Shown: piece by piece, positions 4,394-64,000 of the stretch
Layout of the letters: each line of letters opens with the position of its first letter
Position numbering within the stretch: position 1 is the stretch's first letter
NCBI GenBank assembly: GCA_964565775.1
Contig: CAZMGB010000006.1
Location: 82,941 to 146,940, forward strand
From: an uncultured Dehalococcoidia bacterium
Lineage (GTDB): Bacteria; Chloroflexota; Dehalococcoidia; DSTF01; JALHUB01
Reading direction: 5' to 3'
DNA: 64,000 nucleotides
Notes under the pieces: generated by a model
What the model was told of the DNA's origin: nothing
What the model saw: only the letters and a program-made list of their open reading frames with translations
Database searches by the model: none
Program-made: the position numbers and the translations under genes

Positions 4394-4407
4394 AAAGGGG
4401 AACGCCA

Positions 4408-39184: not shown

Positions 39185-40345
39185 CTAGGCCACGCCGAAG
39201 TGAGCGCGGTTCCACTTCCGCCCCTCGTCGAGCATGGCGAGGAAGTTCTGCCGGGGAATGTAGTTGGCAGGGGTGTTGCCTGTGCTGAGGCAGTAGCCGG
39301 TGCCTTTGGCGGCGCAGACCGCCAGGATTTCGCGGGTGCGCTGGCGTACGTGCTCCTCGCTCCCCCGCGCCAGATCGTCCATGTCCACGCCTCCGAGAAT
39401 GGTGACGCGGTCTCCCCAGCGACGATAGACCTCCTCCACCGGCATGATCTTGTCCTCGAAGGAGTGCTTGGCGTCGATGCCAAGGTCTATGAGTTCGTCC
39501 ATGATCGTCTCCAGATTGCCACAGGAGTGGAGGAGGAAGGGCTTACCGGCGGCATGAACGATCTCGACGAGACGCTTGTGGTGGGGAAAGATGTACTTGC
39601 GGAGCACAGCCGGCGAGACGAGCGTGCCCGTGGCAAAGCCCATGTCGTCGCCCAGGAAGACCATGCCTACGTTGTCGACGGTGACTGCGTGAGCGACAGC
39701 GGCCGCCGTGAGCTCGCCCACTTTCTGGGAGATCGCCTCAATGAGCTCAGGCTGATCGGCCAGCGCGAAGGAGAAGGACTGCAGCCCCATCAGCCACGAG
39801 GTGTTTTCGAAGATGCCGCCGAAGTTCACGCAGATCTTCATTCCCTCGGGCACGACCGCGTTGAGGTACTCTATCGCGCCGTATCTGATCTCCTCCGGCT
39901 TCTGCCAGGGGTAGGCCTCGAAGTCGGCCCAGCTCTGGATGGGCCCGGTGCTCTCGTCCTGCCAGAACCGACTGCCGCCGGGCCAGTTTCCGAGGGCCGC
40001 GGTATCCGCCGCCACGCCGAAGTTGGCGCGTGGGAAGTTGAGGCCGGTCCACGTGTACACGTAGTCGTAGCCGCTCTCATAGCAGAAGCGAAGGGTGAGA
40101 TCGATGGCTGCACGGCCCCTGAGTGTGCGTGACGGCGAGGTGCGGTCGCCCCCGTCGCCGGCAAGAGCGAGTTCGTCCCAGGTGAACTTCTCGCCTAGGA
40201 CCGCTTCGATCATGCCCGGATCGGCGAACAGCTCGACGAACGGGACGGGGCCGGGAGGGCCCTGCCGGAACAGGGTGCGGCGCAAATTGTTGAAGTTGGG
40301 CTGGCGTTTCACCCGGAACCGCGGGCCGTTCGGTGCAGCTTTCAT
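39185..40345 (-). CDS. URO-D-family methyltransferase (MtaA/MtbA/CmuA-like methylcobamide methyltransferase)
   Basis: 386 aa. The URO-D fold has the Zn/thiol-activating motifs HSCGN and GYCLSTGN. It is an inverted paralogue (about 65-70% aa identity by eye) of the gene at 43661..44791. Confidence 0.75.
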   Translation of the reverse strand: MKAAPNGPRFRVKRQPNFNNLRRTLFRQGPPGPVPFVELFADPGMIEAVLGEKFTWDELALAGDGGDRTSPSRTLRGRAAIDLTLRFCYESGYDYVYTWTGLNFPRANFGVAADTAALGNWPGGSRFWQDESTGPIQSWADFEAYPWQKPEEIRYGAIEYLNAVVPEGMKICVNFGGIFENTSWLMGLQSFSFALADQPELIEAISQKVGELTAAAVAHAVTVDNVGMVFLGDDMGFATGTLVSPAVLRKYIFPHHKRLVEIVHAAGKPFLLHSCGNLETIMDELIDLGIDAKHSFEDKIMPVEEVYRRWGDRVTILGGVDMDDLARGSEEHVRQRTREILAVCAAKGTGYCLSTGNTPANYIPRQNFLAMLDEGRKWNRAHFGVA

Positions 40346-40559
40346 CTCGATCTGACTCTCTCAGACAGTCGCGCGTGGACGCCAGCCGAACCGGCGCGCC
40401 AATTGTACGCTCGCCTGCAGGTGCGAAAAAGCAGTCTGGCGGCGAGGCCAACACCCGTGACGCTCTGCGTGCTCCTTCGTTTCTGCTTGCGCCGTCCGGT
40501 TGCCAGCGGCCGGAGCGCGCGCGAGTGGCCGACCGCAGGACGGAGCGGGGGGAGCGGCA

Positions 40560-41483
40560 TCAGTCGAAGTACGCCGCCTCTGGGCTGTCTTTGAACGCCG
40601 CGTACAGCTCGTCGTAGTTCGCAATCAGGTCACGCAGCGGTTCGGGGTTCTGCCTGCGCGTCGTTACGGCCAGCGGCCTCGGCTTGAGATCGAGGAACGA
40701 CTGAACCCGATTGAACACGGCTCTACGATCCTTGAGCAGGTCTTCGAAGTACAGGGTGAGCTGCGGATGCTCGTGGAAGAGGCCGTCATAGTAGTCGGAG
40801 TCCCGCTCTATCTCCTTGAAGAACTCCCGGCACTCCGTCTCTGAGAGTGTCAAAGGGACTCGGAGCGACTTCCAGGCCGGCTCCCTCGGCCTGAGAAACC
40901 TCCACAATCGGTTGGTCGCCATCAGCGGGTGTCGCGCTGCCCCCGGCACGTTCGACAGCCTGAACTTACTGGCGAGCGTCGCCTTTCGATCTTCAGACCA
41001 TCCTCCGGTCCTCTGTGCGATTCTCAGCGACACGAGCATCCTCAGCAAGTTGCGCCTCCTGAGATGCAGCACACGCAGCTCCGTGTCCTCGACCAGCCCC
41101 TCCAGGAGCCCCGGAAAAGACGAGAAGTGGACATGGGGCATCTTGAAGCCGACGGCACGGATCGCCTTGGGATGCTGGCAGAAGATGCGCTCCCGGAGGA
41201 ACTTCCTCAAGTCCTCGTTCCGTAGCACCCGGTCCTCTGCGCTTGAGTTGTCATATCCTTCGACATGGTAGCCTATGCCGTCCATGATCGGGTTGAAGAG
41301 TTCACGAAAGCAGATGATGTTGGGGCTGGAGTTGAGTGATGAGGCGAGCATGGTAGAGCCAGCCCTGGCATAGGTCAAGATGATGAAGCGGACGTACTCC
41401 GTTGAGCCGATGTTGGTGGCTTGTGGCTTCCCTGTCGAGTCCGTGGCAGCCATCCTCCTCCCGGCGTTCGTCACCGGGCCCAT
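40560..41483 (-). CDS. Sulfotransferase-family protein
   Basis: The PAPS 5'-phosphate-binding-loop-like motif ILTYARAGSTML and overall Stf0-type sulfotransferase features are present. GC is somewhat lower than the surroundings. Confidence 0.55.
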   Translation of the reverse strand: MGPVTNAGRRMAATDSTGKPQATNIGSTEYVRFIILTYARAGSTMLASSLNSSPNIICFRELFNPIMDGIGYHVEGYDNSSAEDRVLRNEDLRKFLRERIFCQHPKAIRAVGFKMPHVHFSSFPGLLEGLVEDTELRVLHLRRRNLLRMLVSLRIAQRTGGWSEDRKATLASKFRLSNVPGAARHPLMATNRLWRFLRPREPAWKSLRVPLTLSETECREFFKEIERDSDYYDGLFHEHPQLTLYFEDLLKDRRAVFNRVQSFLDLKPRPLAVTTRRQNPEPLRDLIANYDELYAAFKDSPEAAYFD

Positions 41484-41756
41484 CCTATTTCAGCGATACC
41501 ACGGATTGCAGTCAAGTCACATGCCGAGCCCGCATTGTTCGAGTGCCCGGCTCACTTGGGCTCGCTCCCCCTGAGGAGGTTGTGGGCGGCGTGGTAGACG
41601 GCACAGGCGCAGACACGCGGGGCCGGCCACGTTCCGTTGTTCCTGTCTGCGCCGTCCGTTTGGCACTTGCCCAAGCGCGGACGACATAGCACAATTGCGC
41701 TCGACAATTGCGGGAGCGCCCGAGAGGGTCCATTTTCGGCGGGAGAGCCTCTGTCC

Positions 41757-42926
41757 ATGGGAAACGGCGCCGTACCCATAAGCCGCGAGCCTCGGTACAA
41801 GGAGGTCATCGCCCGCTGGGAGGCGTTCTGGTCGCTTGAGGACGTGGGCCAGCCTCTGTGGATGGTCCCCACGCACCCCGTTCTCACCGCCACCGCGACT
41901 GGCCACGTCCCCATGCGGCCCTTGCTCCAGGACCGGGAGACGCAGCTCAACGCTCAGGTGGGACTGCTCCGGTGGCGCGAGTCCGTCGACCTGGGAGACG
42001 ACTTCGTACCACATCTTCAGGCCCACCAGGGGGTCACGGTCTTTGCCTCGGCGTTCGGCTGCGAGGTCGAATACTTCGACCACACGCTGCCCTGGGCCCA
42101 CCCCGTGATCAGACCTGAAGACCCGCCGGAGAAGGTCTACGAGCTGCCATCTCCCGCGATCACCGACGGCCAGCTCGGCACGATCCTTGAGTGGGGAGAC
42201 TACTTCGTCGAGCGAACGGAAAGACGCTACGCTCTGGCGGTGACCGACCTTCAGGGCCCTCTGGACAGCTCCTACCTGGTCTGGGAGCCGATGGCGTTCA
42301 TGGTCGCCATGAACACCAACCCCAGGGAAGTGCACCACCTGATGCGCCTGATGACCGACCTGATCATCGCCTTCGTCAAGGAGCAGCGCTCGCGCGTGCC
42401 CGAGTTCATGGCCTGCCACTTCCCGCCCGTCTGGCTTCCCGACGGAAGCGGCATCAGTATGAGCGACGACTGCCTGGCCGTCCTCAGCCCCGCCCTCTAC
42501 GAGGAATTCGTTCTGCCTTATGTCAACGAGTTCTCCGACGAGTTCGGGGGTGTGTTCATCCACTCCTGCGGGAACTTCATGCATCAGCTCAACAACCTCG
42601 AAAAGGTGCACAACCTGCGAGGCCTGAACTTCGAGGCGTCGGAGATGCCCTTCGAGGCCGTATGGGAACGCTTTGGCGGCCGGACGGCCATAGTAGTCCA
42701 CCGGGGCCTCAACAAGCAGATCCACTTCGATTCAGAGGCTGACTACGTGCGGCACGTGCTGCGGGTCAAGACCCACGACCGCGGCCTCTGCGTGTTGGTG
42801 TATCCGCCCGCGACGCGGAGGACGGCGCCTGACAGTCATGCCTCCGCCGCGATCTCCGGGACGGAGGCGGTGTCCCTGATGGATTTCGTTGGGCAAATGC
42901 GCGAGCTTCTGGCCCCTGTTCGCTGA
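41757..42926 (+). CDS. URO-D-family protein (corrinoid methyltransferase-like), paralogue 2
   Basis: The ORF starts at TTG 41637. An ATG at 41757 with a GGGAGAG RBS is the likely start. URO-D-like HSCGN motif; about 390 aa. Confidence 0.65.
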   Translation: MGNGAVPISREPRYKEVIARWEAFWSLEDVGQPLWMVPTHPVLTATATGHVPMRPLLQDRETQLNAQVGLLRWRESVDLGDDFVPHLQAHQGVTVFASAFGCEVEYFDHTLPWAHPVIRPEDPPEKVYELPSPAITDGQLGTILEWGDYFVERTERRYALAVTDLQGPLDSSYLVWEPMAFMVAMNTNPREVHHLMRLMTDLIIAFVKEQRSRVPEFMACHFPPVWLPDGSGISMSDDCLAVLSPALYEEFVLPYVNEFSDEFGGVFIHSCGNFMHQLNNLEKVHNLRGLNFEASEMPFEAVWERFGGRTAIVVHRGLNKQIHFDSEADYVRHVLRVKTHDRGLCVLVYPPATRRTAPDSHASAAISGTEAVSLMDFVGQMRELLAPVR

Positions 42927-42952
42927 GGGCCGGATGACGACGGAGGTGCAAC

Positions 42953-43609
42953 GTGGACCTTTCATCTATCAAGCAGCGGCTGGTTGAGGGGGACGCCCCG
43001 GGGACGGCCGAGGGCACCCGAGAGGCGCTGGCCGAAAAGATCCCGCCGGAGACCATACTCAAAGATGCCCTCATGGTCGGCATGGAGGAGGTGGGTGACC
43101 TCTTCTCCCGCAACGAGTACTTCGTACCTGAGCTCCTACTATCGGCTCGGGCCATGTATGCGGCGCTCGATGTCCTGCGCCCGCTGCTCGTGGGCAGCGG
43201 CTACGAGCCGGCCGGGAAGGTGGTCATGGGCACCGTCCAGGGCGACCTGCACGACATCGGCAAGAAGCTCGTGGGCATGATGCTCGAGGGCAGCGGCTTC
43301 GAGGTCGTCGACCTGGGGGCCAACGTCGCACCCGAGCGCTTTGTGGAGGCCATCAAGGAGAGCGGCGCCAAACTGGTGGGTCTCTCCGCGCTCCTCACCA
43401 CCACCCTCCCCGCCATGGAGGAGACGGTGCGCGCTATCCGCCAGGCGGAGCTCGCGACCGAGGTGCACGTCATGATCGGCGGCGCCCCGGTCACTGACTC
43501 CTTCGCCCAGCAGATCGGGGCCCAGGGCTACGCGCCCGACGCCTCCTCCGCTGCCGCTCTCGCTCGGCGACTGCTCGACCTGCCCGCTCGGCAGGGCGGC
43601 CCCGCCTGA
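42953..43609 (+). CDS. Corrinoid (B12-binding) protein, MtaC/MtbC-like
   Basis: N-terminal B12-binding cap (4-helix) domain, then a Rossmann B12-binding domain with GDLHDIGKK (DxHxxG). GTG start with a GGAGGTG RBS. Confidence 0.9.
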   Translation: MDLSSIKQRLVEGDAPGTAEGTREALAEKIPPETILKDALMVGMEEVGDLFSRNEYFVPELLLSARAMYAALDVLRPLLVGSGYEPAGKVVMGTVQGDLHDIGKKLVGMMLEGSGFEVVDLGANVAPERFVEAIKESGAKLVGLSALLTTTLPAMEETVRAIRQAELATEVHVMIGGAPVTDSFAQQIGAQGYAPDASSAAALARRLLDLPARQGGPA

Positions 43610-43660
43610 GGACCAGCCCGCCCCGAGCGTCGGTGTCCCCCTTAGCGAAGGAGGCTAGGC

Positions 43661-44791
43661 ATGCAGCACCAACCTGACTTCGAGAACCTTCGCCGGACGA
43701 TCCTCCGCCAGGGTCCGCCGGGCCCCGTGCCCTTCTTCGACCTGTTCGCCGACCCGGGCATGGTTGAGGCCGTGCTGGAGGAGAAGTTCCCCGTAAACCT
43801 GCACCGCTACATCGAAGAGCCCACCCTGGAGTTTCCCGAGGATGAGCTGCTGGGTCTGATGAAGTCAATCGAGATGTACGTCCGCTTCTGCCGCGAGGTG
43901 GGCTACGACTACGTGTTCATGGTGACGGGCTTCAGCCTTCAGCGAACCTTCCAGGCCGCCGCCGACACCGCCACAGCCGAGAACTGGCCCGGTGGTCAGC
44001 GCTACTGGCAGGATGAGAGCACCGGCCCGATCCAGAGCTGGGCGGACTTCGAGGCCTATCCCTGGCCCAAGGCCGAGGATCTGAACCACGCAGCGCTCGA
44101 GTACGTCAACGCCATCTTGCCGGAGGGGATGAAGATCGCGGCATTCATGTACGGCGGCATCTTCGAGCACTCTACCTGGCTCATGGGCCTGCAACCCTTC
44201 TCTTTCGCTCTCCGCGACCAGCCCGACCTGATAGAGGCGATCTGCCAGCGAGTGGGCGAGCTCGCCACAGCCACCTGCGCCCAGGCCGTCACCATTGACA
44301 ACGTCGACATGGTGTTCCTCAGCGATGACCTTGGATTCTTCAGTGGCACCCTCGTTTCGCCGGACGTGATCCGTCGCTACATCCTCCCCCATTACAAGAA
44401 GATCACCGACACTGCGCACCAAGCCGGCAAGCTGCTCGTCTTCCACTCCTGCGGGAACATGTACAAGCTAATGGACGACCTTGTCGACGACGTCGGCATC
44501 GACGCCAAGCACTCGTTCGAGGACAAGATCGTGCCCGTGGAGGAGGCCTGCCGTCGCTGGGGTGACCGGGTCGCGATCCTGGGTGGAGTGGACATGGACG
44601 TGCTCGGTCGGGGCACGGAAGAGCAGGTTCGGGCTCGCACCCGTCAAATCCTGGAGGTCTGCGGAGTCAAAGGCACCGGCTACTGCCTGGGCAGCGGCAA
44701 CACGGCCGCTAACTACATCCCAAAGCAGAACTACCTGGCCATGCTGGACGAGGGGCGTCGCTGGAACCGAGAGCATTTCGGGGCGGGCTAG
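43661..44791 (+). CDS. URO-D-family methyltransferase (MtaA/MtbA/CmuA-like), paralogue 3
   Basis: 376 aa. Same motifs as 39185..40345 (HSCGN, GYCLGSGN). GGAGG RBS. Confidence 0.75.
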   Translation: MQHQPDFENLRRTILRQGPPGPVPFFDLFADPGMVEAVLEEKFPVNLHRYIEEPTLEFPEDELLGLMKSIEMYVRFCREVGYDYVFMVTGFSLQRTFQAAADTATAENWPGGQRYWQDESTGPIQSWADFEAYPWPKAEDLNHAALEYVNAILPEGMKIAAFMYGGIFEHSTWLMGLQPFSFALRDQPDLIEAICQRVGELATATCAQAVTIDNVDMVFLSDDLGFFSGTLVSPDVIRRYILPHYKKITDTAHQAGKLLVFHSCGNMYKLMDDLVDDVGIDAKHSFEDKIVPVEEACRRWGDRVAILGGVDMDVLGRGTEEQVRARTRQILEVCGVKGTGYCLGSGNTAANYIPKQNYLAMLDEGRRWNREHFGAG

Positions 44792-44888
44792 GGCGGTCGT
44801 GGGCGGGGGTCCCCAGACCCGCGCGACTCCGTCGGGGTGTGAAGACCCCAACTTGCGAAGATGCATCCGCGTGGAGGTGAGGTAAGCC

Positions 44889-45770
44889 GTGACTAACGAT
44901 GATTCGCCGGCCGCGAGCCCAAGTGCACAACTGGGCATCCTCAAGCTGCTAGGTCTGGTAGAGGCCTTCGACCCAACTCGACGTTTCAAGCTCGTTCGTC
45001 ACCAAGAGCAAGGCCTTGACCTGCAGGACTTCCCCAAGGACTGGCTCGAAGCCTACCAGGCCTTCCAAGAGAAACCAGTCTTCGACGGGCTTGATTTCAT
45101 CGTTTCCTTCATTGGAGCTGGCCGCACCCAGGCGCGTCTCGTGGGTGTCTACGAAGTCCTGGGACGAAAGCCAGGACATGCGGGACGCCTGCCGGAAGGG
45201 TGCCCCCATAAAGAGTGGCTGGATTCCCATTACTTCTATCAGATGCAGCGGCTATCTGCATTCGAAGCGCTTGAGGGCAGGGTGGTAATCGAGTGGGGCA
45301 AGGGAACTAGGCGCTGGCATCAAAGGCCAACGAACAAGGAGGTGGTCCAAATCCTGCCCCAGGGTCAGCCCGTCGCGATGTTCGACGACTACCTCGGGTT
45401 CACACTGAGGTACGACCAGCTGAAGGACCTGTATCGCAGGCCCGAGGTCAATAGGGAATGGCGCGCTCGCTTGAGCGCAGTTGCAGGCGTCTATTTGATC
45501 CTTGCCACGACGACAGGGGCACAGTACGTCGGCTCGGCGCATGGGGTAGAGGGGTTCTGGGGCCGCTGGGCAGCGTACGCGAAAGACGGGCACGGGGGGA
45601 ACAAGCTGCTGAGCGATCTCGTGGAGAAAGACCGTGACTACCCAGAAAAGTTCTCCTACTCGATTCTTCAGATACTCCCACCGACCTTTGCCCGAAGCGA
45701 AGTGCTGAAATGGGAGGGCTTGTACAAGCAGAAGCTGGGTAGCCGGAGCGTCGGTTTGAATGTGAATTGA
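44889..45770 (+). CDS. Protein with C-terminal GIY-YIG nuclease-like domain and N-terminal domain of unknown function
   Basis: The C-terminus has GVYLILATTTGAQYVGSA...R...H..GGN...E (a GIY-YIG-like core). GC is about 55%, against about 68% for neighbours. It lies inside an otherwise co-directional methyltransferase operon. Confidence 0.5.
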   Translation: MTNDDSPAASPSAQLGILKLLGLVEAFDPTRRFKLVRHQEQGLDLQDFPKDWLEAYQAFQEKPVFDGLDFIVSFIGAGRTQARLVGVYEVLGRKPGHAGRLPEGCPHKEWLDSHYFYQMQRLSAFEALEGRVVIEWGKGTRRWHQRPTNKEVVQILPQGQPVAMFDDYLGFTLRYDQLKDLYRRPEVNREWRARLSAVAGVYLILATTTGAQYVGSAHGVEGFWGRWAAYAKDGHGGNKLLSDLVEKDRDYPEKFSYSILQILPPTFARSEVLKWEGLYKQKLGSRSVGLNVN

Positions 45771-45836
45771 GTGCCTCGGGTTCCAGCCACCGGCACCCCG
45801 TCTCTGGCGAGGTTCACCGCCTCTTAAAGCACTTCC

Positions 45837-47021
45837 ATGAAGGAGTCGCAGGCCATGCTCCCCCGGGAGCGCGTCCTCACGGCGCTTAACCACGAAGAGC
45901 CCGATCGCGTCCCCATCGACCTGGGCAGCACGAGGGTCACCGGCATCTGCCTGGACGCCTACGAGGGGCTCCGTGATGCCCTGGGCCTGGGCCAGCGCGA
46001 GCTGCGGGTGGTGGACCGCAGCCAGGGACTGGCCGGACCGGACGAGGACGTGCTGGAGGCGCTGGGCGTCGACTTCCGGCCGGTGTGGACGAACCCGCCT
46101 TCGGGCGGCGAGCCACCCGTTGCTCAGGAGGGGGAATACGAAGTCTACTTCGACGAGTGGGGCTGTCGACGGAGCCGCCCCCGCTCGGGCGGCCTCTACT
46201 TCGATATGACCGAGCCGGCCATAATGGAGCCCAGCATGGAGGCCCTGGAGAAGTTCCGCTGGCCTGACGTCGACGACTCCGCGCGCTACGAAGGGCTGCG
46301 CGGGCTGGCGCAGCGCCTTCGCGAGGAGACGTCCTACGCTCTGGTCGGCCACTGCGATTTCGGCCACGATATGCTGGGGTCCTTCCTCAACGTGCGCGGC
46401 TACACGGAGGCGATGCTCGACCTGGCCGCCCACGCGGACTTCGTCGAGGCATTCATGGAGGGGGCAACGCGACTGGCCCTGCGGGCCTGGGAGCACTTCC
46501 TGGAGCAGGTGGGCGAGCTGGTGGACGTGGTGCTCTGCTACGACGACCTGGGCATGCAGGACCGCCCCCTCATCTCACCCGCGATGTACCGGCGACTGAT
46601 CAAGCCCTACCACGGCCGCGTCATCGCCGCCATCCACAAACGCACCCCGGCGAAGGTGTTCTTCCATACCGACGGCGCCGTGGCCGAGTTCATTCCCGAT
46701 TTCATCGAGATAGGCGTAGACATCCTTAACCCTGTGCAGGTATCGGCGGCCGGCATGGAGGATACGGGCGCCCTCAAGAGGCGCTATGGCAAGAACCTGG
46801 TCTTCTGGGGCGGGGCCTGCGACTCCCAGAGGGTTCTCCCCTTCGGAAGCCCGGAGGACGTCCGGCTCGAGTCGCGACGTCGCATCGCCGACCTGGCGCC
46901 GGGGGGAGGCTTCGTCTTCGCCCCCGTCCACAATATTCAGTGCGACGTTCCGGGCGAGAACACTCTCGCTTTCTTCCAGAGCGCGCGGGAGGCCGGCCGC
47001 TACCCGGTCGCCGGCCCCTAG
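45837..47021 (+). CDS. URO-D-family protein (corrinoid methyltransferase-like), paralogue 4
   Basis: 394 aa. N-terminus PRERVLTALNHEEPDRVPIDLG is typical of the MtaA/URO-D family; URO-D fold. Confidence 0.65.
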   Translation: MKESQAMLPRERVLTALNHEEPDRVPIDLGSTRVTGICLDAYEGLRDALGLGQRELRVVDRSQGLAGPDEDVLEALGVDFRPVWTNPPSGGEPPVAQEGEYEVYFDEWGCRRSRPRSGGLYFDMTEPAIMEPSMEALEKFRWPDVDDSARYEGLRGLAQRLREETSYALVGHCDFGHDMLGSFLNVRGYTEAMLDLAAHADFVEAFMEGATRLALRAWEHFLEQVGELVDVVLCYDDLGMQDRPLISPAMYRRLIKPYHGRVIAAIHKRTPAKVFFHTDGAVAEFIPDFIEIGVDILNPVQVSAAGMEDTGALKRRYGKNLVFWGGACDSQRVLPFGSPEDVRLESRRRIADLAPGGGFVFAPVHNIQCDVPGENTLAFFQSAREAGRYPVAGP

Positions 47022-47030
47022 ATCAGCATT

Positions 47031-48689
47031 ATGTCAGGTCCGCATACCGGAAACACTGTGCGCGTCCGCTTCCATGACTTCGACTCCGAGGTCGAGGTGG
47101 AACGCGGGAAGACCGTTCTCGAGGCGGTGCGCCAGGCCGGCCTCGCGCTGGAGTCGGAGTGCGGCGGCCGCGCCACCTGCGGAAGCTGCCGCGTCCGCTT
47201 CCTCCAGGGCGCCCCCGCGCCCGGCGCCGACGATCGCCTGCTCCTCGACGACGAAGACATCGCTCAGGGGTGGCGCCTCGCCTGCCAGACCACGCTCACA
47301 GAGGACTGCCGCATCGCCCTCCCGGCGGCCGTCGCCGAGGGCGGGCTGCGCATCCTCACCGAGACGTACGGGATCGGAGAGGCTCCACCGATCATCCCAA
47401 GCACCGCCGTCGGTGCGTACGGCGCCGCCATCGATGTCGGTACGACCACAGTGGTCTGCTACCTGCTGGACCTCGCGCACGCGCGCCAGGTCGGCGTCGC
47501 CTCTTTCGCCAACCCGCAACGGCGACTGGGCCCGGATGTCATCTCCCGCATCGTCTACGCCCACCAGAGCCGCGAGCACCTGATCGAGGCCCGCGATTGC
47601 CTGGTCGAGGCGGTAGAGGAGGCGCTGGTGGCTCTTTGCCGCGAGCACCGCCTGCCGCTGGACGCCCTATCCCGCATCACGGTGGTCGGCAACCCCACCA
47701 TGCTCCACCTTCTGTGCGCCGTCGACCCCTGGTCACTGGGCATAGTGCCTTACCAGCCCGCGTTCACCGACGCAGCCGCCGTCGCCGCGGGCGAGGTGGG
47801 CTTCCGCCGTCTGGCCGGGGCCGAGCTGATTCCTCTGCCGGGCGTGGCGGGACATCTGGGCGCCGACGCCGTCGCCGGTCTACTGGCGCTGGGCCTCTCC
47901 GGGCGCCGAGGGCTGTTCCTGTCCATGGACATGGGCACCAACGGCGAGCTGCTGCTCGTCTCAGACGATGACGCCGTCGGCGCTTCCTGCGCCGCCGGAC
48001 CCGCTTTCGAGGGGGTGCACATCTCTTCGGGGATGGCCGCCCTCCCAGGCGCCGTCGAACGGGTGGACGAGGAGGACGGACGGCTGGCACTTGAGACCAT
48101 CGACGGCGCCGCGCCCTGCGGCATCTGCGGTTCAGGACTCGTCGACGTCGTGGCGCTGCTCGTGCGCCGGAGAATGCTGACGACCGGCGGACGCCTGCCC
48201 GAGCCCGCCGAGCTTCCCGAAGGCCTGCCGCGAGACCTGAGCCAGCGCCTGCGAGCGGACGACGAAGGCCGCCGTTTCGTCCTCTACGAGGATGGCGCGG
48301 GCCCGACCGTGGCCCTGACACAACGCGACATCCGTGAGGTGCAACTGGCCAAGGCCCCCATCCGTGTAGGGGTAGAGGTGCTGCTCGAGGAGATCGGCGC
48401 TGGGCCGAACCAGGTGGACGCCGTGTTCGTGGCCGGGGCCTTCGGCAGCTCCATCCGCCCGGCCAGCCTGCTGGCCCTGGGCATCCTGCCTACCGCCATG
48501 ACGGGCCGCATCCACCCTGTCGGCAATCTGGCCGGAATGGGCGCCAAAGTGGCCCTCGCCTCGGACGAGCGCCTGGAGGAGGCCCGCCGCCTCGCCCGCC
48601 GCATCCGGCACGTGGAGCTGATGCTGCGAGAGGACTTTCACGCCCGCTTCGCCGACCACATCCCGTTCCCGGAGCCGTCTCAAACATGA
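47031..48689 (+). CDS. Corrinoid reductive activase (RACo/RamA family: N-terminal [2Fe-2S] ferredoxin + ASKHA ATPase, DUF4445)
   Basis: Plant-type ferredoxin motif CGGRATCGSCRV...C, then a DUF4445/ASKHA domain (IDVGTTTV, MDMGTNGEL). The ORF ends with an ATGA overlap onto the next gene. Confidence 0.85.
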   Translation: MSGPHTGNTVRVRFHDFDSEVEVERGKTVLEAVRQAGLALESECGGRATCGSCRVRFLQGAPAPGADDRLLLDDEDIAQGWRLACQTTLTEDCRIALPAAVAEGGLRILTETYGIGEAPPIIPSTAVGAYGAAIDVGTTTVVCYLLDLAHARQVGVASFANPQRRLGPDVISRIVYAHQSREHLIEARDCLVEAVEEALVALCREHRLPLDALSRITVVGNPTMLHLLCAVDPWSLGIVPYQPAFTDAAAVAAGEVGFRRLAGAELIPLPGVAGHLGADAVAGLLALGLSGRRGLFLSMDMGTNGELLLVSDDDAVGASCAAGPAFEGVHISSGMAALPGAVERVDEEDGRLALETIDGAAPCGICGSGLVDVVALLVRRRMLTTGGRLPEPAELPEGLPRDLSQRLRADDEGRRFVLYEDGAGPTVALTQRDIREVQLAKAPIRVGVEVLLEEIGAGPNQVDAVFVAGAFGSSIRPASLLALGILPTAMTGRIHPVGNLAGMGAKVALASDERLEEARRLARRIRHVELMLREDFHARFADHIPFPEPSQT

Positions 48690-49600
48690 GTGGCGCGGGT
48701 GGGCCGAAAGACGCGCCCCTCGGCCGCGAGCTGTCCCGCTGTCCGCTGGTCTACGACGGCTCCAAGGGAGTCTATCTGTCGGAGCGACTGGCGTCCGTCG
48801 GGCGCTCGCCCGGAGACGCCAGCGAGTGGCTGAACCTCCTCTCGCCGAAGGTCGTCCGGCAGATGCACCGCGAGTACATCGACGCCGGCGCCCAGATGAT
48901 CCAGACGAACACCTTCAACGGCAATCGACTGCGTCTGGAGGCCTACGGACTGGGCGACCGTGTGCACGAGGTGAACGTCGCCGCCGCCCGCATCGCACGC
49001 GAGGCCGCAGGCGATGACGTGTGGGTCGCGGGCGTTGTGGGCCCGAGCGGAAAGCTCCTCGCCATGGGCGAGGTGAACGAGCGGGCCCTCGTCGGCGCCT
49101 TCGCCGAGCAAGCCGCGGCCCTGGCCGAGGGTGGTGTAGACCTGTTCCACGTCGAGACCATGAGCGACTTGACCGAAGCGAGGGCCGCCGTCGAGGGCGT
49201 GCGCCGTGTCGCCGATCTGCCGCTGCTCCTCACGATGTCATTCGACACCGGGAAGCCGGAGGCGCTGCGCACGATGATGGGTGTGACGCCCGCACAACTG
49301 GTGGATGCGGCCCGGGAGATGGAGCTCTTTGGTCTCGGCGCCAACTGCGGTCGCGGCCTGGAGGGCTACCAGGAGCTGGTCCGGGCGCTGGCGCAGCCCC
49401 AGGGCGCGCTCGTCGCCAAGCTCAATGCCGGCATCCCGCGCATGGAAGGGTCTCAGGTCGTCTATGACGGCACGCCGGAGAGGATGGCCGCATACGCCCT
49501 CTGGTGCGTCGAGAACGGCGTCAGCATCGTCGGGGGCTGCTGCGGTAGCACGCCCCGCCACATCGAGGCCATGGCTCGAGCGATTGCCCGGATGGGGTAA
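48686..49600 (+). CDS. Homocysteine S-methyltransferase-domain protein (MetH Hcy-binding / BHMT family, Pfam S-methyl_trans)
   Basis: IQTNTF, GANCGRG and [11 protein letters not shown] match the Zn-binding Cys triad region of the Hcy-binding barrel. It is translationally coupled (4-nt overlap) to the RACo gene. Confidence 0.8.
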
Positions 49601-49677
49601 GCCCACGGCGGCGCTGGACGGGGCACACGGCCCTCGCATAACATGAAGCTGAGGCGGCCGACCTCGGATCCGGTGCT

Positions 49678-50751
49678 ATGGCAAATTCCGAATCGCCCCT
49701 GCAAGCGTACCTGAAGCCCGTTCCCACGCCACCGGGCGTCAGCAGCCGCGAGATCGTGCGCCGCGCCGTTGAGTTCGACGACCCGCCACGCATACCGTAC
49801 AGCTTCATCCAGCCGCTGGAGTCGGACTTCGTGGAGCTGGCGGTAGTCACCCCCAGCCGCATCGAGATGTCGAACGTCCCGAAAGGAGAGTTCATCGTCG
49901 ATGAGTGGGGCGTGGGAGTGCGCAGCTCGGGGACGAGCTGGGGCCACGCCGAATCGCATCCGCTGGCGGACCTCAACGCCCTGGACGGCTACAGCTTCCC
50001 CGACGTCACGAACCGCGAGCGCTTCCAGGCGGCAGCGGGGCTGGCGAGGGCGGGCGACGCAGCCGGCAAGTACGTCGTCGGGGCGGACCCGATCCTGGGC
50101 ATCGAGCGCCTGCGGCTGCTCGTCGGCTTCGACAACCTCATGGTGGCGCTGTACACGGAGCGTTCGCAACTCGACCGCCTGATCGACAGGCTGGTGGACA
50201 TGACGCTTGAGGTCGTGCGGATGTACGCGGACATGGGCAACGTACACGGCTTCATGACCTGGGAGGACTGGGGCCTCCAGACCACGCTCCAGATCAGGCC
50301 GGCGCAGTGGCGCGAGATCTTCAAGCCGCGCTACTCACGCATCGTCCAGGCCACGCACGCCGCCGGCATGCACTACCTCTTCCACTGTTGCGGCCAGATC
50401 CTGGACATCATTCCGGACCTCATCGAGATCGGCGTCGACGTGCTCCAGCTCGACCAGCCCCGGCTCATGGGCGTGGACCACCTCGCAGACGAGTTCGGGG
50501 GCAAGATCTGCTTCTGGAACACGGTGGACATCCAGTGGTCGCCCGACCCTGAAGTCACGCTCGATGAGCTGAGAGCCGAAGTCAAGCACATGGTGGGTGC
50601 CTTTGATCGATTCGGCGGAGGCTTCATCGCGCGGCAGTACCCCCAACCCTGGGACATCGGCATGCCTCGCGAGAAGCACCAGGCGATCTACGAGGCGTTC
50701 ATGGAATACGGCTGCGGCCTGCGCCCGGAGCCCGGCGAGGCCGGAAGCTAG
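49678..50751 (+). CDS. URO-D-family protein (corrinoid methyltransferase-like), paralogue 5
   Basis: 357 aa URO-D-like fold with an HCCGQ motif. Confidence 0.6.
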
Positions 50752-50772
50752 GCGGGCCAACGGACGACACGG

Positions 50773-51903
50773 ATGGCACCGAAGCAAGAGATGACCCCAC
50801 GGGAGCGGCTGCTGGCCGCCCTCCGTCGCCAGCCCTGCGACCGCGTCCCCTTCACGCCGCTGGTGGAGGGCTACTTCCAGCTATCACTGCCCGACGGGCG
50901 GACGCGACACATCGCCGACCTCCAGTACGAGATGTCGGGCCACATGCTCGTCCGGGCGGGGGTGCTGCGCATCAACACGCCCCTCTGGCTGGGCGCGACC
51001 GCCACGGACCTGGCGGCTGGCGTCGAGCAGCGGGCGTCGACCGTAGACGGCGACATCATCCACACCGTAGAGACCCCCGTCGGCAGCTTGACGTGGCGCC
51101 TCCGCTTCGCGCCCGAGAGTCCCTACATCCCCTGGGTCATCGAAAACCGCATCCGCACCGTCGAAGACATCAGGACGTTCCAGTACCTCATCGAGCGGAC
51201 GACGTTCGAGCTCGACACGCGCTACTTCGAGAGCCAGACGTCCTACGTCGGCGACCGAGGGATCGTGGCCATCCTGGGACCGACCTCCCCTCTCCAGCAG
51301 ATGATCAACTTCGAAATGGGGCTCGAGCGCGTGATCTACATGCTGGCCGACCACCCGGACGAGATGCACGAGATGCTGGACGCCTACCACGCCAAGCAGG
51401 CCGCAATGTGGCGTCTCATGGCCGAGGTGCCGGCCGAGGTCGCCTTCGTCCACGACAACCTGTCCAGCACCACAACCTCGCGCCCCATGTACCGCACCTA
51501 TGACCGGCGTTATGTCAATGAGTACGCGGACATATTGCACGCCAGCGGCAAGACCTTCCTCACCCACTGGTGCGGCAAGCTCACCGGCTTCGCGAAAGAC
51601 GTCGCCGAAGCGCGCCAGGACGGCATCTCAGACGTTACGCCGCCGCCAACGGGCGACCTCGACATCATCGAGGCGCGCCGCACCTGGGCCAAGCGGTTCG
51701 TCCTGCTCGGAGGGATCGACCCGACGCTCTTCGCCCTGGGCACGCCTCAGAAGATGGAGGCCTACGTAACCGACCTGCTGGAGCGGATGGGGCCGGACCG
51801 ACGCGGCTTCATACTCGGCAGCGGCGACGCCGTCCCCTACGGCACCCCGGCCGAGAATCTCCGCGCGGCCGCCGACACGGCCGCCCGCTTCCCCGTGGCG
51901 TGA
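50773..51903 (+). CDS. URO-D-family protein (corrinoid methyltransferase-like), paralogue 6
   Basis: 376 aa. N-terminus PRERLLAALRRQPCDRVPF is the family signature. The motif is THWCGK. Confidence 0.65.
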   Translation: MAPKQEMTPRERLLAALRRQPCDRVPFTPLVEGYFQLSLPDGRTRHIADLQYEMSGHMLVRAGVLRINTPLWLGATATDLAAGVEQRASTVDGDIIHTVETPVGSLTWRLRFAPESPYIPWVIENRIRTVEDIRTFQYLIERTTFELDTRYFESQTSYVGDRGIVAILGPTSPLQQMINFEMGLERVIYMLADHPDEMHEMLDAYHAKQAAMWRLMAEVPAEVAFVHDNLSSTTTSRPMYRTYDRRYVNEYADILHASGKTFLTHWCGKLTGFAKDVAEARQDGISDVTPPPTGDLDIIEARRTWAKRFVLLGGIDPTLFALGTPQKMEAYVTDLLERMGPDRRGFILGSGDAVPYGTPAENLRAAADTAARFPVA

Positions 51904-51994: not shown

Positions 51995-54900
51995 CTACGG
52001 ACCGGGGTCGTTCAGGAGCAGATGGCGGATATGGAGCGGCGAGAACGTGATCTGAATGGCCTCGAACGTCCCGGGGCCAGCAGGACATTGGCCACTCCCG
52101 CCCACCATCAGCAGGCCTCCTTCGAACGCTATGCCGAGAAGTGCTACACGGCTGGAGAAGCGCCGCAGGACCCAGGCGTCACGCTCACCCGTGTCGAACC
52201 CTGAACCTGTGAATCGGTAGACGTGGTTATCGAGATCTATGGCAAGCTGCGTTCCCCTCGCAGGGTCCTGGAAGAGACAGACTCCTGGACTCGAGGGCGT
52301 GGCCGTCGCTGTCGGCGTCGCTGTGGCCGTAGATGTGCGTGCTGGCGTCGCGGTTTGCGTCGCGGTCTGCGTCGCGGTTGCCGTGCCGGTGGCGGTCGGC
52401 GTGCGCGTGGGCGTCGCGGTTCGCGTGGATGTGGGCGTGGTCGTAGGCGTAGGAGTGGACGTCGGAGTCGGCGTTGGCGTGGCCTCAAGCTCGACCAAGA
52501 CCTTGACCACCGGCTCCCCGATCTCGTGGTCGAACTGGAGGGGCGTGGTCAGGAGAAGGGAGCCGATGCCCGACAACTGGTTGCTTTCCTCGTTGGGGCA
52601 GCCAGGACAGACAGTAATGTCATCGCCCGTCGAGAAGCCGTCCGTGCTGGCCACCTCAAGCTCCGTCCCGCCGGCGCCGACGTGCGCGGTGAGGCCGGTG
52701 CCGACCTGGGCCATGACGCACTGAGAGAACTCCGAGGTGTTGCCGTCTTGGTCGGTTGCGGTAGACGTGATGAAGTTGCCCGGCACCGCTCCCGCCCCCG
52801 GGAACGTCGTGTCGATAACGGCGTGGCCCGCCAAGTCGGCAGTGACGTCGGCGAAGCCGAGGAAGCGATCGCCCTCGCCATAGCCGGACTCGTCGCAGGC
52901 GTCGTTGGCGAAGAACTCTATGCGGTAGGAGTGAACCCCCAGGACCGTGTCCAGTGACCCGCCGATGCGCAGGTCTCCCCCGGCCTGCACCGCGGCGAAG
53001 CCGAGGACGGGGAAGTTCAGGAGGTCGTTGGGCCCCGAGTCGGCGTCGTCCAGGTCATTGGGGTTGGGGCCGGCCGGATCCAGGTCGATCCCCAGGCCGG
53101 AACGGAACCCGGAGGCCTGGTTGTCAGTGATGGCGTTCTCGGAAAGGCGAGCGCTGCTCTGCCCCTCGACCCATACTCCCACGTGGTTGTCATGGATGGA
53201 GTTGTGCTCGACGACGTTCCCGGTCGAGTCCACCACCTGCACTGCGATGTCGTTGTCATGGATAGCGTTGTCGTCGATGGCGTTTCCGCTCGAACCCTCT
53301 ACTGCCTGCACCCCCACCTGGTTGAAGGCGATGGTATTGCCCTCGACAGTGTTGTCGAATGCTTCCTGCTGGATGCTGACGCCCTGGTCGTTGCTCAGGG
53401 CTGTCTGGGCGTCTGCCAGCGTCCCGATGAGGTTGTCGCGGATGTCGTTCTCCGATGAGCCCGCGCCCGATACGGCGACGGCCTCAAAGAAGCCAGAGAT
53501 GACGTTATCCCTCACCTGATTCTGGTACGAGTCGCCGATGCTCACACCTACTTCTTGCTGGCCGATGACGGGGCCATCGCCCTGGGCATTGGTGCCGATG
53601 AAGTTGCCGCGCACCGTGTTCTGCCCGTTCGTGGACTCAAGGCTGATCGCGTTCGCGACGGCGGAGATGACGTTTCGCTCCGCAGCGGTTCCCCCGCCGA
53701 TCACGTTCTGGGATGCGTTCCCATCGATGGCGATCCCCAGCGGCTGAGGGAGGAGGCTTTCGTCGAGATCGGGGTGGCTGGGCGGATACCGCTGGCCGGT
53801 GATGTCGACGCCGATGAAGTTGCCGATGACCCTGTTCCCCGTGGCCCCGGGACCGGAGATCAGGATGCCCTGCGGCCGCTGTTCGGAGTAGATATAAGTG
53901 ATCATGTTATTGCCGGAAATGAGGTTACAGGCCCCGTCGCATACGCCGGCGCCGTGGTTCGTGCCCCCAATTGTATTGTTGGCGGACTCGACCAGGATGC
54001 CGCCGCCGTCGTCGCTGGCGCCGTTGCCCAGCGCCCAGGTGCCCGTGGGGTCGGTGCCGATGACGTTGCTCTCCAGGACGTTGCCGCCGCCGCCCCTCAA
54101 GACAATGCCCCACTGGCAGTACCCGTGGATCACCAGGCCCCGCACCGTCGAGTTCCCCCCACTTATCACGAGGCCGGTCGCCGGCGGGATGACAGATGAG
54201 CCGCAACCAAGTATGTCGGGGCTCCAGAGCTCCACCTGGCCGCCGCCGGGCTGGGTGGTGCCGTCGATCACGACCGGCTCCGTGGCCTCGAAGCAAGTGT
54301 CCTCGCCAAAGACGCCCAACTGGCAATAGACACCCCCGGCTTGAGGGATGTCGAAGTTGATGGTGTCCTTGCCGGGGTTGGCGTTCGCCTCCTGGATGGC
54401 GGCGGTCAGCGTGCACTCATCGTCACCGCTGTCTGTCTGGTGTCCCGTGTCGCACAGCCCGTCGCCGACGAACTGGTCAGTGCTGGCCTGGGTCGAGTTA
54501 ACGGTGAACACGTGCTGCTCCTCCGGCACGCGCTGCCAGTCAAGACCGCAGATCGTATTCGATGTGGACAGGATCGTGCCGCCGTCGACGGTGCGCACCT
54601 GATAGGGTGACCCAGAGCTGGTAACATAGGCGATCTTCTGCCCATCCGGCGACCACGCCGGGTGGAGGCCCCCGCCCCCCCACAGGTGTAAGGCGCGTGG
54701 GGTCCCCACCCTCGGCGCCGATGGTGTATACCTGGTTGCCGTCCGCGGTCGTGGCGCGGCGGAACGCGATCTGCCCGCCGTCGGGGGACCAGTCCGGCTC
54801 GTCGTCTATGGCCGGATCGGGCGAGTTCTCCTGTATGGTATCGCCGACGTCCGTTAGCTGGTGGAGCCCCGTGCCATCGGAGTTGACGGCCCAGAGGTCG

Positions 54901-55511
54901 TTGAACTGGCGGTAATTGACGCTGTCGTAGTCGACGTCCCAGCTCCTGGTGAAGACGATCTCGTTACCGTCCGGGCCCGGCTGCCAGGAGGGCTGGCGGT
55001 GGTAGTCATAGCTTGTGTGGGGAAAGTACTCGGGCGGGTACCATGACCCGACCTGCTTGTGCGTGAGCTGGGTCTTCTGAAGCGTGTCCAGGTCATATAT
55101 CCACAGCTCGCCGCTGAGGACGTACACCAGCTTCTTGCCGTCGGGCGACCAGTCGGGCTGGTCTCCCCAGTCGATGGTCTGTCGGCCGCTTCCGTCGGCA
55201 TTGGCGATGTAGAGCCCGCCTCCGGTGCTATAGGCGATGTGCTTCCCGTCCGGCGACCAGGACACCCGCGAGGGGTGGTCCAAACCGCTATTCAGGGGCA
55301 GGTACTGGTAGCCGCTTCCGTCCGGGTTCACGGTATGGACGGTCCCTTGCCCACTCCCGTCGCAGCTTTCGAGAACGGCGATCTTGCCGTCCTCCCCAGG
55401 GAACGCGGCCTGCGAAGGCTTGACGACAACACTAACAAACCGCGTCAACAGCAGCAGGCCCACGACCAGCAGCGCAAGGCCGCAGACGAGAAGAATGTGA
55501 AGCAGCTTCAT
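51995..55511 (-). pseudogene. Frameshifted gene for a large secreted/anchored protein: signal-anchor + TolB-like PD40 beta-propeller + right-handed parallel beta-helix repeats + Thr/Pro linker + C-terminal domain
   Basis: Two overlapping ORFs (55511..54540 and 54709..51995, minus strand) are in different frames. PD40 repeats (WSPDGK.IAY) run across the junction. Deleting one G from the G7 tract at 54675..54681 (minus strand) gives the continuous read ...DPTRLTPVGGGGLHPAWSPDGQKIAYV... This is either an authentic frameshift, a phase-variable tract, or a sequencing error. Confidence 0.6.
52290..52490 (-). repeat. Low-complexity Thr/Pro/Ala-rich linker-coding repeat ([46 protein letters not shown]...)
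   Basis: About 200 nt of imperfect ACNCCN / ACNGCN tandem codon repeats inside the beta-helix protein gene. Confidence 0.7.
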
Positions 55512-57169: not shown

Positions 57170-57224
57170 ACCGCTTTCCCCCTTTTCGCCGAAGTGTCGG
57201 CGCGACGGATGTCGCTCCGCTTCT

Positions 57225-58688: not shown

Positions 58689-58755
58689 GTCGCCACCTCA
58701 TGGGTATTAGAGACGCCTGGCGCCTTCCGACAGGGTGAAGCGGGCCTGGCCGACG

Positions 58756-61985: not shown

Positions 61986-62015
61986 GTGCCGCTCCCGGTG
62001 CAGGGCCCGCCCGGG

Positions 62016-63620: not shown

Positions 63621-64000
63621 CAACGTCCTCCATTCTCGCGAGCCGTCGCCCACTCGTGGCTGAATGGCTGTCTCCGCCGCCACCTACGGCCTGTATAGCG
63701 CGCGAAGGCGTGCCCTAACTAGAGCCGATTGGCAGGTCTTTTGTATCCTGCGGGATAGGCCCGGACGCGTGAGTTCGAAGACAGCCCGAAACCCGTTGGA
63801 TCGGAATCAGGCTGGCAGGACTGTTGCCTGATGCCAAGAGCTGACGACGGCGCGCCCGGAGACGCGCCGTCCAGCGGTGGCGGCCCAACTCTTGTCCCGA
63901 TGGGGAGCTGCGGAGCACAACGCCAAAGGGGGCGTGCAGCAGCACCTACTCGACCGGACAACAGCATGTCCGACCGAAACCGACCAGAAGGCGCGGCGAC

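Follow-up and report, generated by a model that had tools for sequence, protein, structure and literature searches.

A corrinoid methyl-transfer island with a stand-alone homocysteine module in an uncultured Dehalococcoidia bacterium: a possible shared-corrinoid methionine-synthase hub

Where would the methyl groups go in a gene island that holds many candidate methyltransferases, a single corrinoid protein and a homocysteine-binding barrel instead of a pterin-binding partner? This question is raised by a stretch of 64,000 nucleotides (hereafter the window) on contig CAZMGB010000006.1 of an uncultured Dehalococcoidia bacterium of soil or sediment (assembly GCA_964565775.1). A sequence-only reading of the window had placed at 39185-51903 six genes of the uroporphyrinogen decarboxylase (URO-D) family, one corrinoid protein (CP), one RACo activase and one stand-alone homocysteine (Hcy) module, and Pfam searches recovered every one of them at its position. 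In our best reading, the island resembles a shared-corrinoid methionine-synthase hub, for which split MetH/MtgBCDE and mlp clusters are the closest precedents. Donor-specific methyltransferases would charge one CP, and the homocysteine module would make methionine from it, a scheme that we hold with roughly even confidence. The gene content suggests that folate may not be the only methyl source for methionine and that methyl compounds of the environment may serve as well.

The homocysteine module, the corrinoid protein and the activase

Three genes, each of them single-copy within the window, form the core of the island:

42953-43609, plus strand: corrinoid protein (CP), 218 amino acids (aa), with cap and Rossmann domains (PF02607 and PF02310)
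47031-48689, plus strand: RACo/RamA-type ATP-dependent reductive activase (RACo) with an N-terminal 2Fe-2S domain (Fer2, Raco_middle and RACo_C_ter, E down to 2e-64)
48686-49600, plus strand: stand-alone MetH-type homocysteine S-methyltransferase module (HcyMT), 304 aa (PF02574, E 4e-68)

The best NCBIfam matches of CP were cognate corrinoid proteins of the MtgC/MtbC type, and the protein carries the DxHxxG motif, read here as DLHDIG. RACo was AcsV-like in NCBIfam, and the reactivation domain PF02965 was not seen in any of the scanned open reading frames (ORFs) of the window. The nearest solved structures of HcyMT were the Hcy domains of MetH (E 3e-49 to 2e-40), with BHMT far behind (E 2e-14). 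Cys221, Cys285 and Cys286, which make up the zinc triad, and the TNTF and ETM motifs were invariant in 16 HcyMT homologues. Because of these structural matches and the invariant zinc cysteines and motifs, HcyMT is assigned, by sequence comparison, as a MetH-type methyl-corrinoid:homocysteine module. In NCBIfam its top model was PRK07534 ('Bhmt'), and the lowest score came from an MmuM-type model (89 bits). PRK07534 probably represents the family of Sinorhizobium meliloti Bhmt, which has been called an MtgE homologue. The Bhmt of S. meliloti has been reinterpreted as MtgE, the Hcy subunit of a split methionine synthase (PMC12478193).

Related loci were collected by scanning one genome per GTDB species with an HcyMT alignment, which gave 24 loci that were then searched with the window proteins. 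Of these, 22 belong to Dehalococcoidia or other Chloroflexota metagenome-assembled genomes (MAGs), with names such as SPRUCE, MFD and Afr_mines, and proteins identical to those of the window were also found on a 152-kb NCBI contig and on short metagenome contigs. In 10 species representatives (loci L006-L013, L015 and L023; HcyMT identity 55-80%), orthologues of CP, RACo or the URO-D genes are found no more than 10 kb from HcyMT, and the same clustering was found in two metagenome contigs (L002 and L004). Neighbourhood conservation, named as a check by the sequence-only reading, thus holds for HcyMT in 10 other species, in shuffled order. With the letters A to F standing for the URO-D paralogues described below, the arrangements include B-CP-C-C'-D-HcyMT; CP-HcyMT, RACo, D, C; and HcyMT, RACo-CP, F-E, B-A. 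Since gene order and strand differ between lineages, this clustering is, on the evidence of the gene maps, the pattern of selection for co-location and not of recent shared ancestry of the block. URO-D genes are accompanied by a cognate CP and a reductive activase in the window as well as in 10 further species, which bears out the corrinoid methyl-transfer context that had been proposed for them from the presence of CP and RACo alongside. In L013, a B12-binding radical SAM gene (7509-9032) is located directly upstream of the CP-HcyMT pair.

The start codon of HcyMT overlaps the stop codon of RACo in the window (ATGA), and an overlap of this type (ATGA or GTGA, with GGAG upstream) is shared by the window and L006, L007, L008, L009 and L011. 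HcyMT is thus predicted to be translationally coupled to RACo in six genomes. Because it is coupled to RACo, and because it is kept with CP, RACo and URO-D genes despite the shuffled order, we take the homocysteine module to belong to the system. One could argue instead that HcyMT is a corrinoid-independent enzyme of the MmuM/BHMT type which is in the cluster by chance, and that some of the URO-D proteins, notably D, are other TIM barrels of aromatic or sugar catabolism. We consider this very improbable: stand-alone PF02574 proteins of about 300 aa do include MmuM-type enzymes, but the RACo overlap recurs in six genomes, the adjacency is kept in 12 loci, and HcyMT scores far better on the Hcy domains of MetH than on BHMT or MmuM.

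Six URO-D lineages and a second array with candidate donor enzymes

The following genes encode the six URO-D paralogues, of which A, B and C carry a His-Cys-Cys metal site:

39185-40345, minus strand: paralogue A, 386 aa (PF01208, E 8e-23; HSCGN...GYCL, His-Cys-Cys)
41757-42926, plus strand: paralogue B, 389 aa (PF01208, E 1e-14; HSCGN...GLCV, His-Cys-Cys)
43661-44791, plus strand: paralogue C, 376 aa (PF01208, E 1e-20; HSCGN...GYCL, His-Cys-Cys)
45837-47021, plus strand: paralogue D, 394 aa, or 388 aa from the ATG at 45855 (PF01208, E 4e-19; HTDG...PVHN)
49678-50751, plus strand: paralogue E, 357 aa (PF01208, E 4e-11; HCCG, no downstream or third Cys)
50773-51903, plus strand: paralogue F, 376 aa (PF01208, E 2e-22; HWCG...GSGD, no third Cys)

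Pfam matched PF01208 in these six window ORFs (E 4e-11 to 8e-23), and local phmmer found no seventh URO-D copy in the 64-kb window. With scores of 43-81.5 bits against a gathering score of 23.9, all six are members of the superfamily. That they might be genuine uroporphyrinogen decarboxylases (HemE), a possibility raised by the sequence-only reading, was rejected, as TIGR01464, with its cut-off of 303 bits, matched F alone, at 20.8 bits, and none of the other five. The same reading had taken three of the proteins for close MtaA-like paralogues with HSCGN/GYCL motifs. A and C are indeed close to each other (63% identical), but the third HSCGN protein, B, reads GLCV and is the most divergent of the six, and none of them is near MtaA. 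Every other pair was 21-29% identical over partial alignments, or not alignable; D and E, for instance, share 24% identity over 317 aa. The best PDB match of C was MtaA (4AY7), at E 5e-6 over 148 residues with H-x-C aligned, and the MtaA/CmuA-type models of NCBIfam gave 25.8-69.3 bits on the six paralogues against cut-offs of 235 (TIGR01463) and 244 (PRK06252), which does not reach subfamily membership. Given the low identities among pairs and the distance from MtaA, a description as close MtaA paralogues was rejected. PDB searches with B, D, E and F returned marginal matches only, to UroD, MtaA or CdmB, and no function was transferred from them. The similarity to CdmB was marginal for all six, the best being that of F (E 0.017).

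Two classes can be told apart by their metal motifs: A, B and C have His-Cys-Cys, and the sites of D, E and F are altered. The His-x-Cys...Cys zinc site is present in A, B, C and all of their orthologues, with the third ligand position in A-C placed by spacing and not by a structure, and it is absent from D, E and F. The sequence-only reading had listed HSCGN, HCCG and HWCG for the divergent paralogues; HTDG of D was not on that list. D has no Cys at the second ligand position, and the motif of its family is H-[ST]-[DC]-G, with no downstream Cys at the position. For every one of the six, a separate set of orthologues was found at 60-85% identity, and the metal motif specific to the group is conserved within it, which marks A-F as old lineages of their own and not as the products of recent duplication.

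Orthologues of A were found in L006, where the gene adjoins SBP5-RACo-HcyMT (SBP5 being a family-5 solute-binding protein), and in L023, with conserved motifs in both. B adjoins CP in the window, L002, L004, L008, L009 and L010, and is one ORF apart from it in L007; the His-Cys-Cys motif is kept in 8 B orthologues. The C-type lineage is very abundant and conserved: more than 120 clusters are at least 78% identical, and so are all of the best 120 listed homologues. A bare CP-C pair occurs in another lineage in L034 (9339-11131, beside complex I genes) and L035, and a C-type gene stands alone in L033 (6110-7240). D orthologues adjoin HcyMT or RACo in L002, L004, L007, L010, L012, L013 and L015, and in Dehalococcoidia they are always beside CP, RACo or HcyMT. 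Orthologues of E were found in L008, L009 and L023, and those of F in L009 and L023.

The limits of 39185-51903 proposed in the sequence-only reading were too narrow. The island extends past them, and a minus-strand array at 55976-63683, which had been missed, belongs to it, in the order solute-binding protein, two permeases, MtaB, MttB-family methyltransferase and pyridoxal phosphate (PLP) enzyme:

60152-63683, minus strand: ABC importer of two permeases and a family-5 solute-binding protein (BPD_transp_1 twice, SBP_bac_5)
58756-60165, minus strand: MtaB homologue, methanol:corrinoid methyltransferase family (PF12176, E 1e-162)
57225-58688, minus strand: non-pyrrolysine methyltransferase of the MttB superfamily (PF06253, E 2e-115)
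55976-57169, minus strand: PLP enzyme of Cys/Met metabolism (PF01053, E 9e-123)

The second permease overlaps MtaB by 14 nt. Against Methanosarcina barkeri MtaB (2I2X) the MtaB homologue gave E 3e-98, and the residues aligned to Glu164, Cys220 and Cys269, the zinc ligands in the MtaBC structure, are conserved. Its substrate is not certain, because its score of 460 bits is below the NCBIfam equivalog cut-off of 720. The MttB homologue is 35% identical to MtgB of Desulfitobacterium hafniense, in which the glycine-betaine-binding residues have been defined as Y97, R312, H348 and F356 (PMC13080624). With the MtgB numbering mapped at a consistent offset of +2, the homologue keeps only the Arg of these four, the others being L, a gap next to T/C, and T, and for this reason its substrate is probably not glycine betaine. 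The PLP enzyme scored similarly on models for methionine gamma-lyase, cystathionine gamma-synthase and sulfhydrylase, in every case below the NCBIfam cut-off.

Relatives in which the two arrays are merged help to interpret this arrangement. L008 and L009 both have CP and B first, then RACo-HcyMT-MtaB, then (F) E, then MttB, so that MtaB comes directly after RACo-HcyMT; the PLP gene follows MttB in L009 as well. Since these loci hold RACo-HcyMT-MtaB, E and MttB together, the two arrays of the window are, by this comparison, one functional unit. A counterpart of the importer was seen in L006, where an SBP5 orthologue is located beside A-RACo-HcyMT.

Inserted and neighbouring genes

B, CP, C, D, RACo, HcyMT, E and F form a single same-strand array with gaps of -4 to 97 nt. 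A promoter and terminator scan was uninformative and showed no terminator-like site inside the B-to-F array, and the search of the window for cobalamin, SAM or other riboswitches had a tRNA-Gly as its sole match. Two genes embedded in the island, and two that stand between its halves, are:

40560-41483, minus strand: sulfotransferase-like gene (Sulfotransfer_1/3 at or below the Pfam cut-offs; GC 60%)
44792-45814: insertion of 1,023 bp in the C-D spacer, delimited by blastn against L002, L004 and L010
44889-45770, plus strand: GIY-YIG endonuclease-like gene (Pfam E 0.03; phage family phrog_26160, E 4e-28; GC 58%)
51995-54709, minus strand: beta-helix NosD protein, 904 aa, with a long Thr/Pro-rich linker, between the two halves of the island
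54540-55511, minus strand: PD40/DPPIV-like protein, between the two halves of the island

The sequence-only reading had counted the sulfotransferase and the GIY-YIG gene among the distinguishing features of the cluster. Both genes are present, but they are not features of the system: no orthologue of either was found in any related locus examined, both are low in GC compared with the 61-69% of the window, and the GIY-YIG gene lies in an insertion and matches a phage family. They were rejected as system parts for these reasons. The sulfotransferase-like gene carries a P-loop-like YARAGST and is probably a strain-specific acquisition. The C-D spacer measures 41 bp in L004, and a 12-nt inverted repeat (44757-44768 and 45779-45790) flanks the insertion of the window. 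The GIY-YIG-like protein aligns weakly across the whole catalytic domain of I-TevI, and 44792-45814 looks like a mobile element of the homing-endonuclease type.

Other neighbours were noted in the window and around the related clusters. A beta-helix protein comes after the PLP gene in L009 too. Genes of the HpaB monooxygenase family are divergent from and adjoin B in L002 (1077-2507), L004 (3801-5234) and L010 (2631-4076), and the window's own HpaB-family gene (31158-32585, plus strand), 30-32% identical to those three, is 9 kb off. A P450 is located near the cluster in L008, and a glyoxalase/dioxygenase in L006. These HpaB-family, P450 and glyoxalase/dioxygenase neighbours hint at aromatic substrates. 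Among 74 neighbour ORFs in L006-L023, one matches PF00148 (nitrogenase component 1 type oxidoreductase; E 2e-60), which recalls the MarDK-like genes reported near mlp clusters. At 1862-10272 on the plus strand of the window, a bacterial alpha-2-macroglobulin of 1,994 aa comes after a class A penicillin-binding protein, a known pairing that is unrelated to the island.

The methyl acceptor and its possible meaning

In most studied bacterial corrinoid methyltransferase systems, a folate methyltransferase is encoded in the cluster (PMC10418091). No such gene was found here. The sequence-only reading had reported no pterin-binding methyltransferase II (MT II) in the window, and this was confirmed by Pfam scans, in which PF00809 was not found in any substantial ORF of the 64 kb, and by a phmmer search. 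The latter used as its seed the PF00809 domain of a MetH-like fusion and covered, in the window and 29 loci, all stop-to-stop ORFs with a length of 90 aa or more, 2,637 in number; it returned the seed itself only, with the modest sensitivity of a single sequence. The fusion is an 824-aa protein of a Polyangia MAG (L027, 6780-9251) that joins Hcy, pterin, cap and B12 domains and has no reactivation domain. No PF00809 appeared among the results shown for 30 neighbour ORFs scanned singly, nor among the top 25 of 70 families in a pooled Pfam scan of 74 neighbour ORFs, where a weak match could be missed. No pterin-binding gene was found within 10 kb of the 12 clustered relatives, and DUF1638 (PF07796) had no match among the scanned window ORFs.

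A stand-alone Hcy module that has its CP and RamA-type activase in common with an MttB-family donor is known from the split MetH/MtgBCDE systems (PMC5764234, PMC12478193) of Phaeobacter inhibens, Ruegeria pomeroyi and S. meliloti. These share with the island a free PF02574 module (MtgE there), a stand-alone cap and Rossmann CP that is common to methionine synthesis and the donor methyltransferase, a RamA/DUF4445-type activase that replaces the reactivation domain of MetH, and an MttB-family donor. However, the island has no MtgD in the window or near its clustered relatives and no DUF1638 in the scanned ORFs, adds an MtaB homologue and six URO-D-family enzymes, and lacks three of the four glycine-betaine residues in its MttB homologue. 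Its CP is nearer to the MtgC/MtbC type of methanogens and acetogens, its HcyMT appears to be translationally coupled to the activase, and its host belongs to Dehalococcoidia and not to Proteobacteria.

The Ruegeria and Phaeobacter genes for the pterin module are remote from those for CP and the Hcy module, and CP serves both functions (PMC5764234, PMC12478193). The island could be arranged in the same way, as an ordinary split methionine synthase with catabolic demethylases in the manner of Ruegeria MtgBCDE: HcyMT, CP and RACo would be the housekeeping split MetH, an unlinked pterin subunit would bring in the methyl group of methyl-tetrahydrofolate, and the MtaB, MttB and URO-D enzymes would mainly feed that subunit in its reverse direction, with oxidation of the methyl groups by way of folate. 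Methionine made from these donors would be incidental. Besides the unlinked and shared parts of Ruegeria and Phaeobacter, this alternative draws on the implausibility of methionine as a bulk sink and on a derived HcyMT subclade that is solitary, as expected of a housekeeping gene. Against it stand the absence of PF00809 from the window and from up to 10 kb around the 12 clustered relatives, the in-cluster folate methyltransferase of most studied systems (PMC10418091), and the fact that HcyMT is the acceptor gene which stays with the activase and is translationally coupled to it. We regard it as possible but tentative.

The type 1 mlp clusters described by Kountz & Balskus are the second precedent, with multiple URO-D homologues, one CP and an activase and no folate methyltransferase, and methionine formation has been proposed as a fate of their methyl groups (PMC10418091). 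The island likewise has several URO-D enzymes, one CP, one Ram/RACE activase, no tetrahydrofolate methyltransferase, and the His-Cys-Cys site in A, B and C. In contrast, Mlp proteins are about 30% identical to MtaA/MtbA while the island proteins are much more remote, three of the six paralogues of the island have no Cys ligands, and mlp clusters have neither a PF02574 gene nor MtaB nor MttB, all three of which the island has. They have been reported only from obligate anaerobes, mainly Firmicutes and Methanococcales (PMC10418091). A type 1 cluster has at least one member each of the Mlp2 and Mlp3 clades, and the remoteness of the island paralogues from MtaA/MtbA argues against such membership.

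According to a rule given for these enzymes, His-Cys-Cys goes with sulfur or selenium chemistry, and replacement of a Cys by a carboxylate or non-ligand residue goes with O-demethylases (PMC10418091). The island could then be a methyl-sulfur/selenium system like that of mlp clusters, in which A, B and C exchange methyl groups with CP, with dimethyl sulfide, methanethiol, methylmercaptopropionate or sulfide as the thioether or thiol partner, some of them as true MT II, and together with HcyMT and the PLP enzyme carry out methionine or methylthio salvage. The His-Cys-Cys site kept in all A, B and C orthologues, the rule itself with the proposal of methionine salvage by mlp clusters (PMC10418091), and the linkage of the Cys/Met PLP enzyme to the island in the window and L009 would fit. 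This is improbable, however, as A, B and C are far from MtaA/MtbA (best E 5e-6; NCBIfam scores of 29-59 bits against 235), mlp clusters have been reported only from obligate anaerobes, mostly Firmicutes, and MtaB, MttB and the non-Cys sites of D, E and F point to O- and N-methyl donors too.

Other known systems differ mainly in their acceptors. The Odm, Vdm, Mtv, Mto and Cdm systems also bring together a URO-D methyltransferase I (MT I), a CP and an ATP-dependent activase, with many MT I paralogues per genome (PMC13222342, PMC8630106), but they carry a pterin-binding or MtrH-like MT II with tetrahydrofolate or tetrahydromethanopterin as the acceptor, where the island cluster has the Hcy module instead. 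Methanosarcina MtaABC and the MtaB-containing systems of acetogens share an MtaB homologue with the zinc-ligand residues and a cognate-type CP; the island, unlike MtaABC, has no true MtaA, no coenzyme M context and no dedicated MtaC beside MtaB. Because MtaB directly follows RACo-HcyMT in relatives of the window, homocysteine would be implied as the acceptor rather than coenzyme M or tetrahydrofolate. Core-MetE/MesA-D enzymes, one of them in Dehalococcoides, share the concept of methionine from a methyl-corrinoid protein and not from methyl-folate, but are of the MetE fold family, whereas the acceptor of the island is a MetH-type PF02574 barrel (PMC7005905, PMC7857596). No paper in which a homocysteine module accompanies URO-D or MtaB donors in a gene cluster was found by full-text search of the open-access literature. 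The sequence-only reading had called the system modular and not described as such, which holds for this combination of donors and acceptor but not for the principle, which has precedents in split MetH/MtgBCDE (PMC5764234, PMC12478193) and mlp (PMC10418091). Its view of the Hcy barrel as the only obvious acceptor fits the evidence that HcyMT belongs to the system, but has to be qualified, as A, B and C keep a His-Cys-Cys site of the thiol-methylating type (PMC10418091).

The shared-corrinoid hub, which we prefer, would work as follows. RACo would keep the single CP in the Co(I) state, and CP would be methylated by a variable set of donor-specific methyltransferases, up to eight in number. The MtaB homologue would be the enzyme for methanol and the MttB homologue that for a quaternary amine, probably other than glycine betaine. 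On the rule cited above (PMC10418091), D, E and F with their altered metal site would take O-methyl donors as in O-demethylases, and A, B and C with His-Cys-Cys would take methyl-thioethers or thiols. HcyMT would then make methionine by methylating homocysteine at the expense of methyl-Co(III)-CP. We infer that all eight donors use one CP, what their chemistries are, and that homocysteine is the physiological acceptor.

Several points weigh against this hub. The absence of a pterin module from 64 kb does not show its absence from the genome, because the pterin module of Ruegeria is encoded far from the other parts, and a folate branch elsewhere in the genome may exist and take the larger part of the flux. 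If the donors serve for growth, methionine is a poor sink in stoichiometric terms. The enzymes A, B and C may act on the acceptor side, as MtaA-like MT II, and not as donors. No RACo was found within 10 kb in L002, L004 and L010, and ten HcyMT relatives are solitary. In a neighbour-joining tree, these ten solitary genes form one derived subclade nested among the clustered ones, from which the clustered state appears to be ancestral for the HcyMT clade.

D, in turn, may not be a corrinoid methyltransferase at all. Its homologues at 53-55% identity in Pirellulaceae (Planctomycetota; L030, 10001-11164) and on metagenome contigs (L031, 5408-6550 and 10001-11158; L032, 10001-11164) are found in sugar-type clusters with SDR, AP_endonuc_2 (sugar-isomerase type), MFS, UxaE, transaldolase (TAL) and Ldh_2 genes, with no CP within 10 kb. 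As these homologues have no nearby CP, the corrinoid dependence of D rests on its context in Dehalococcoidia, where its orthologues, as noted, never stand apart from the core genes, and this context speaks against D being another type of TIM barrel. In other phyla the D lineage apparently has a corrinoid-independent, uncharacterised role.

A further proposal is that widespread Dehalococcoidia of soil, peat and sediment have no folate-linked methionine synthase, and that a folate-independent multi-donor hub replaces the pterin module, its MetH-type homocysteine module being served by a single CP that methanol (through MtaB), a quaternary amine (through the MttB-family enzyme) and methoxy or methylthio compounds (through six URO-D lineages) charge directly. 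At present we consider this unlikely, though by no means negligible, and the interest of the island would be considerably higher if the genomes prove to be without any pterin-binding methyltransferase.

If the hub is real, methyl groups of lignin methoxy groups, methanol and osmolytes would enter the methionine and S-adenosylmethionine pool of abundant uncultured Dehalococcoidia and bypass folate, which would be a fifth route of folate-independent methionine synthesis. As the modules are small and soluble and each has its own gene, reconstitution is feasible, and they are of interest as methyl-shuttle biocatalysts. The idea of a shared corrinoid hub, which comes from marine Proteobacteria, would then be extended to Chloroflexota and would take in URO-D and MtaB donors, and six conserved URO-D lineages would gain a testable biochemical setting.

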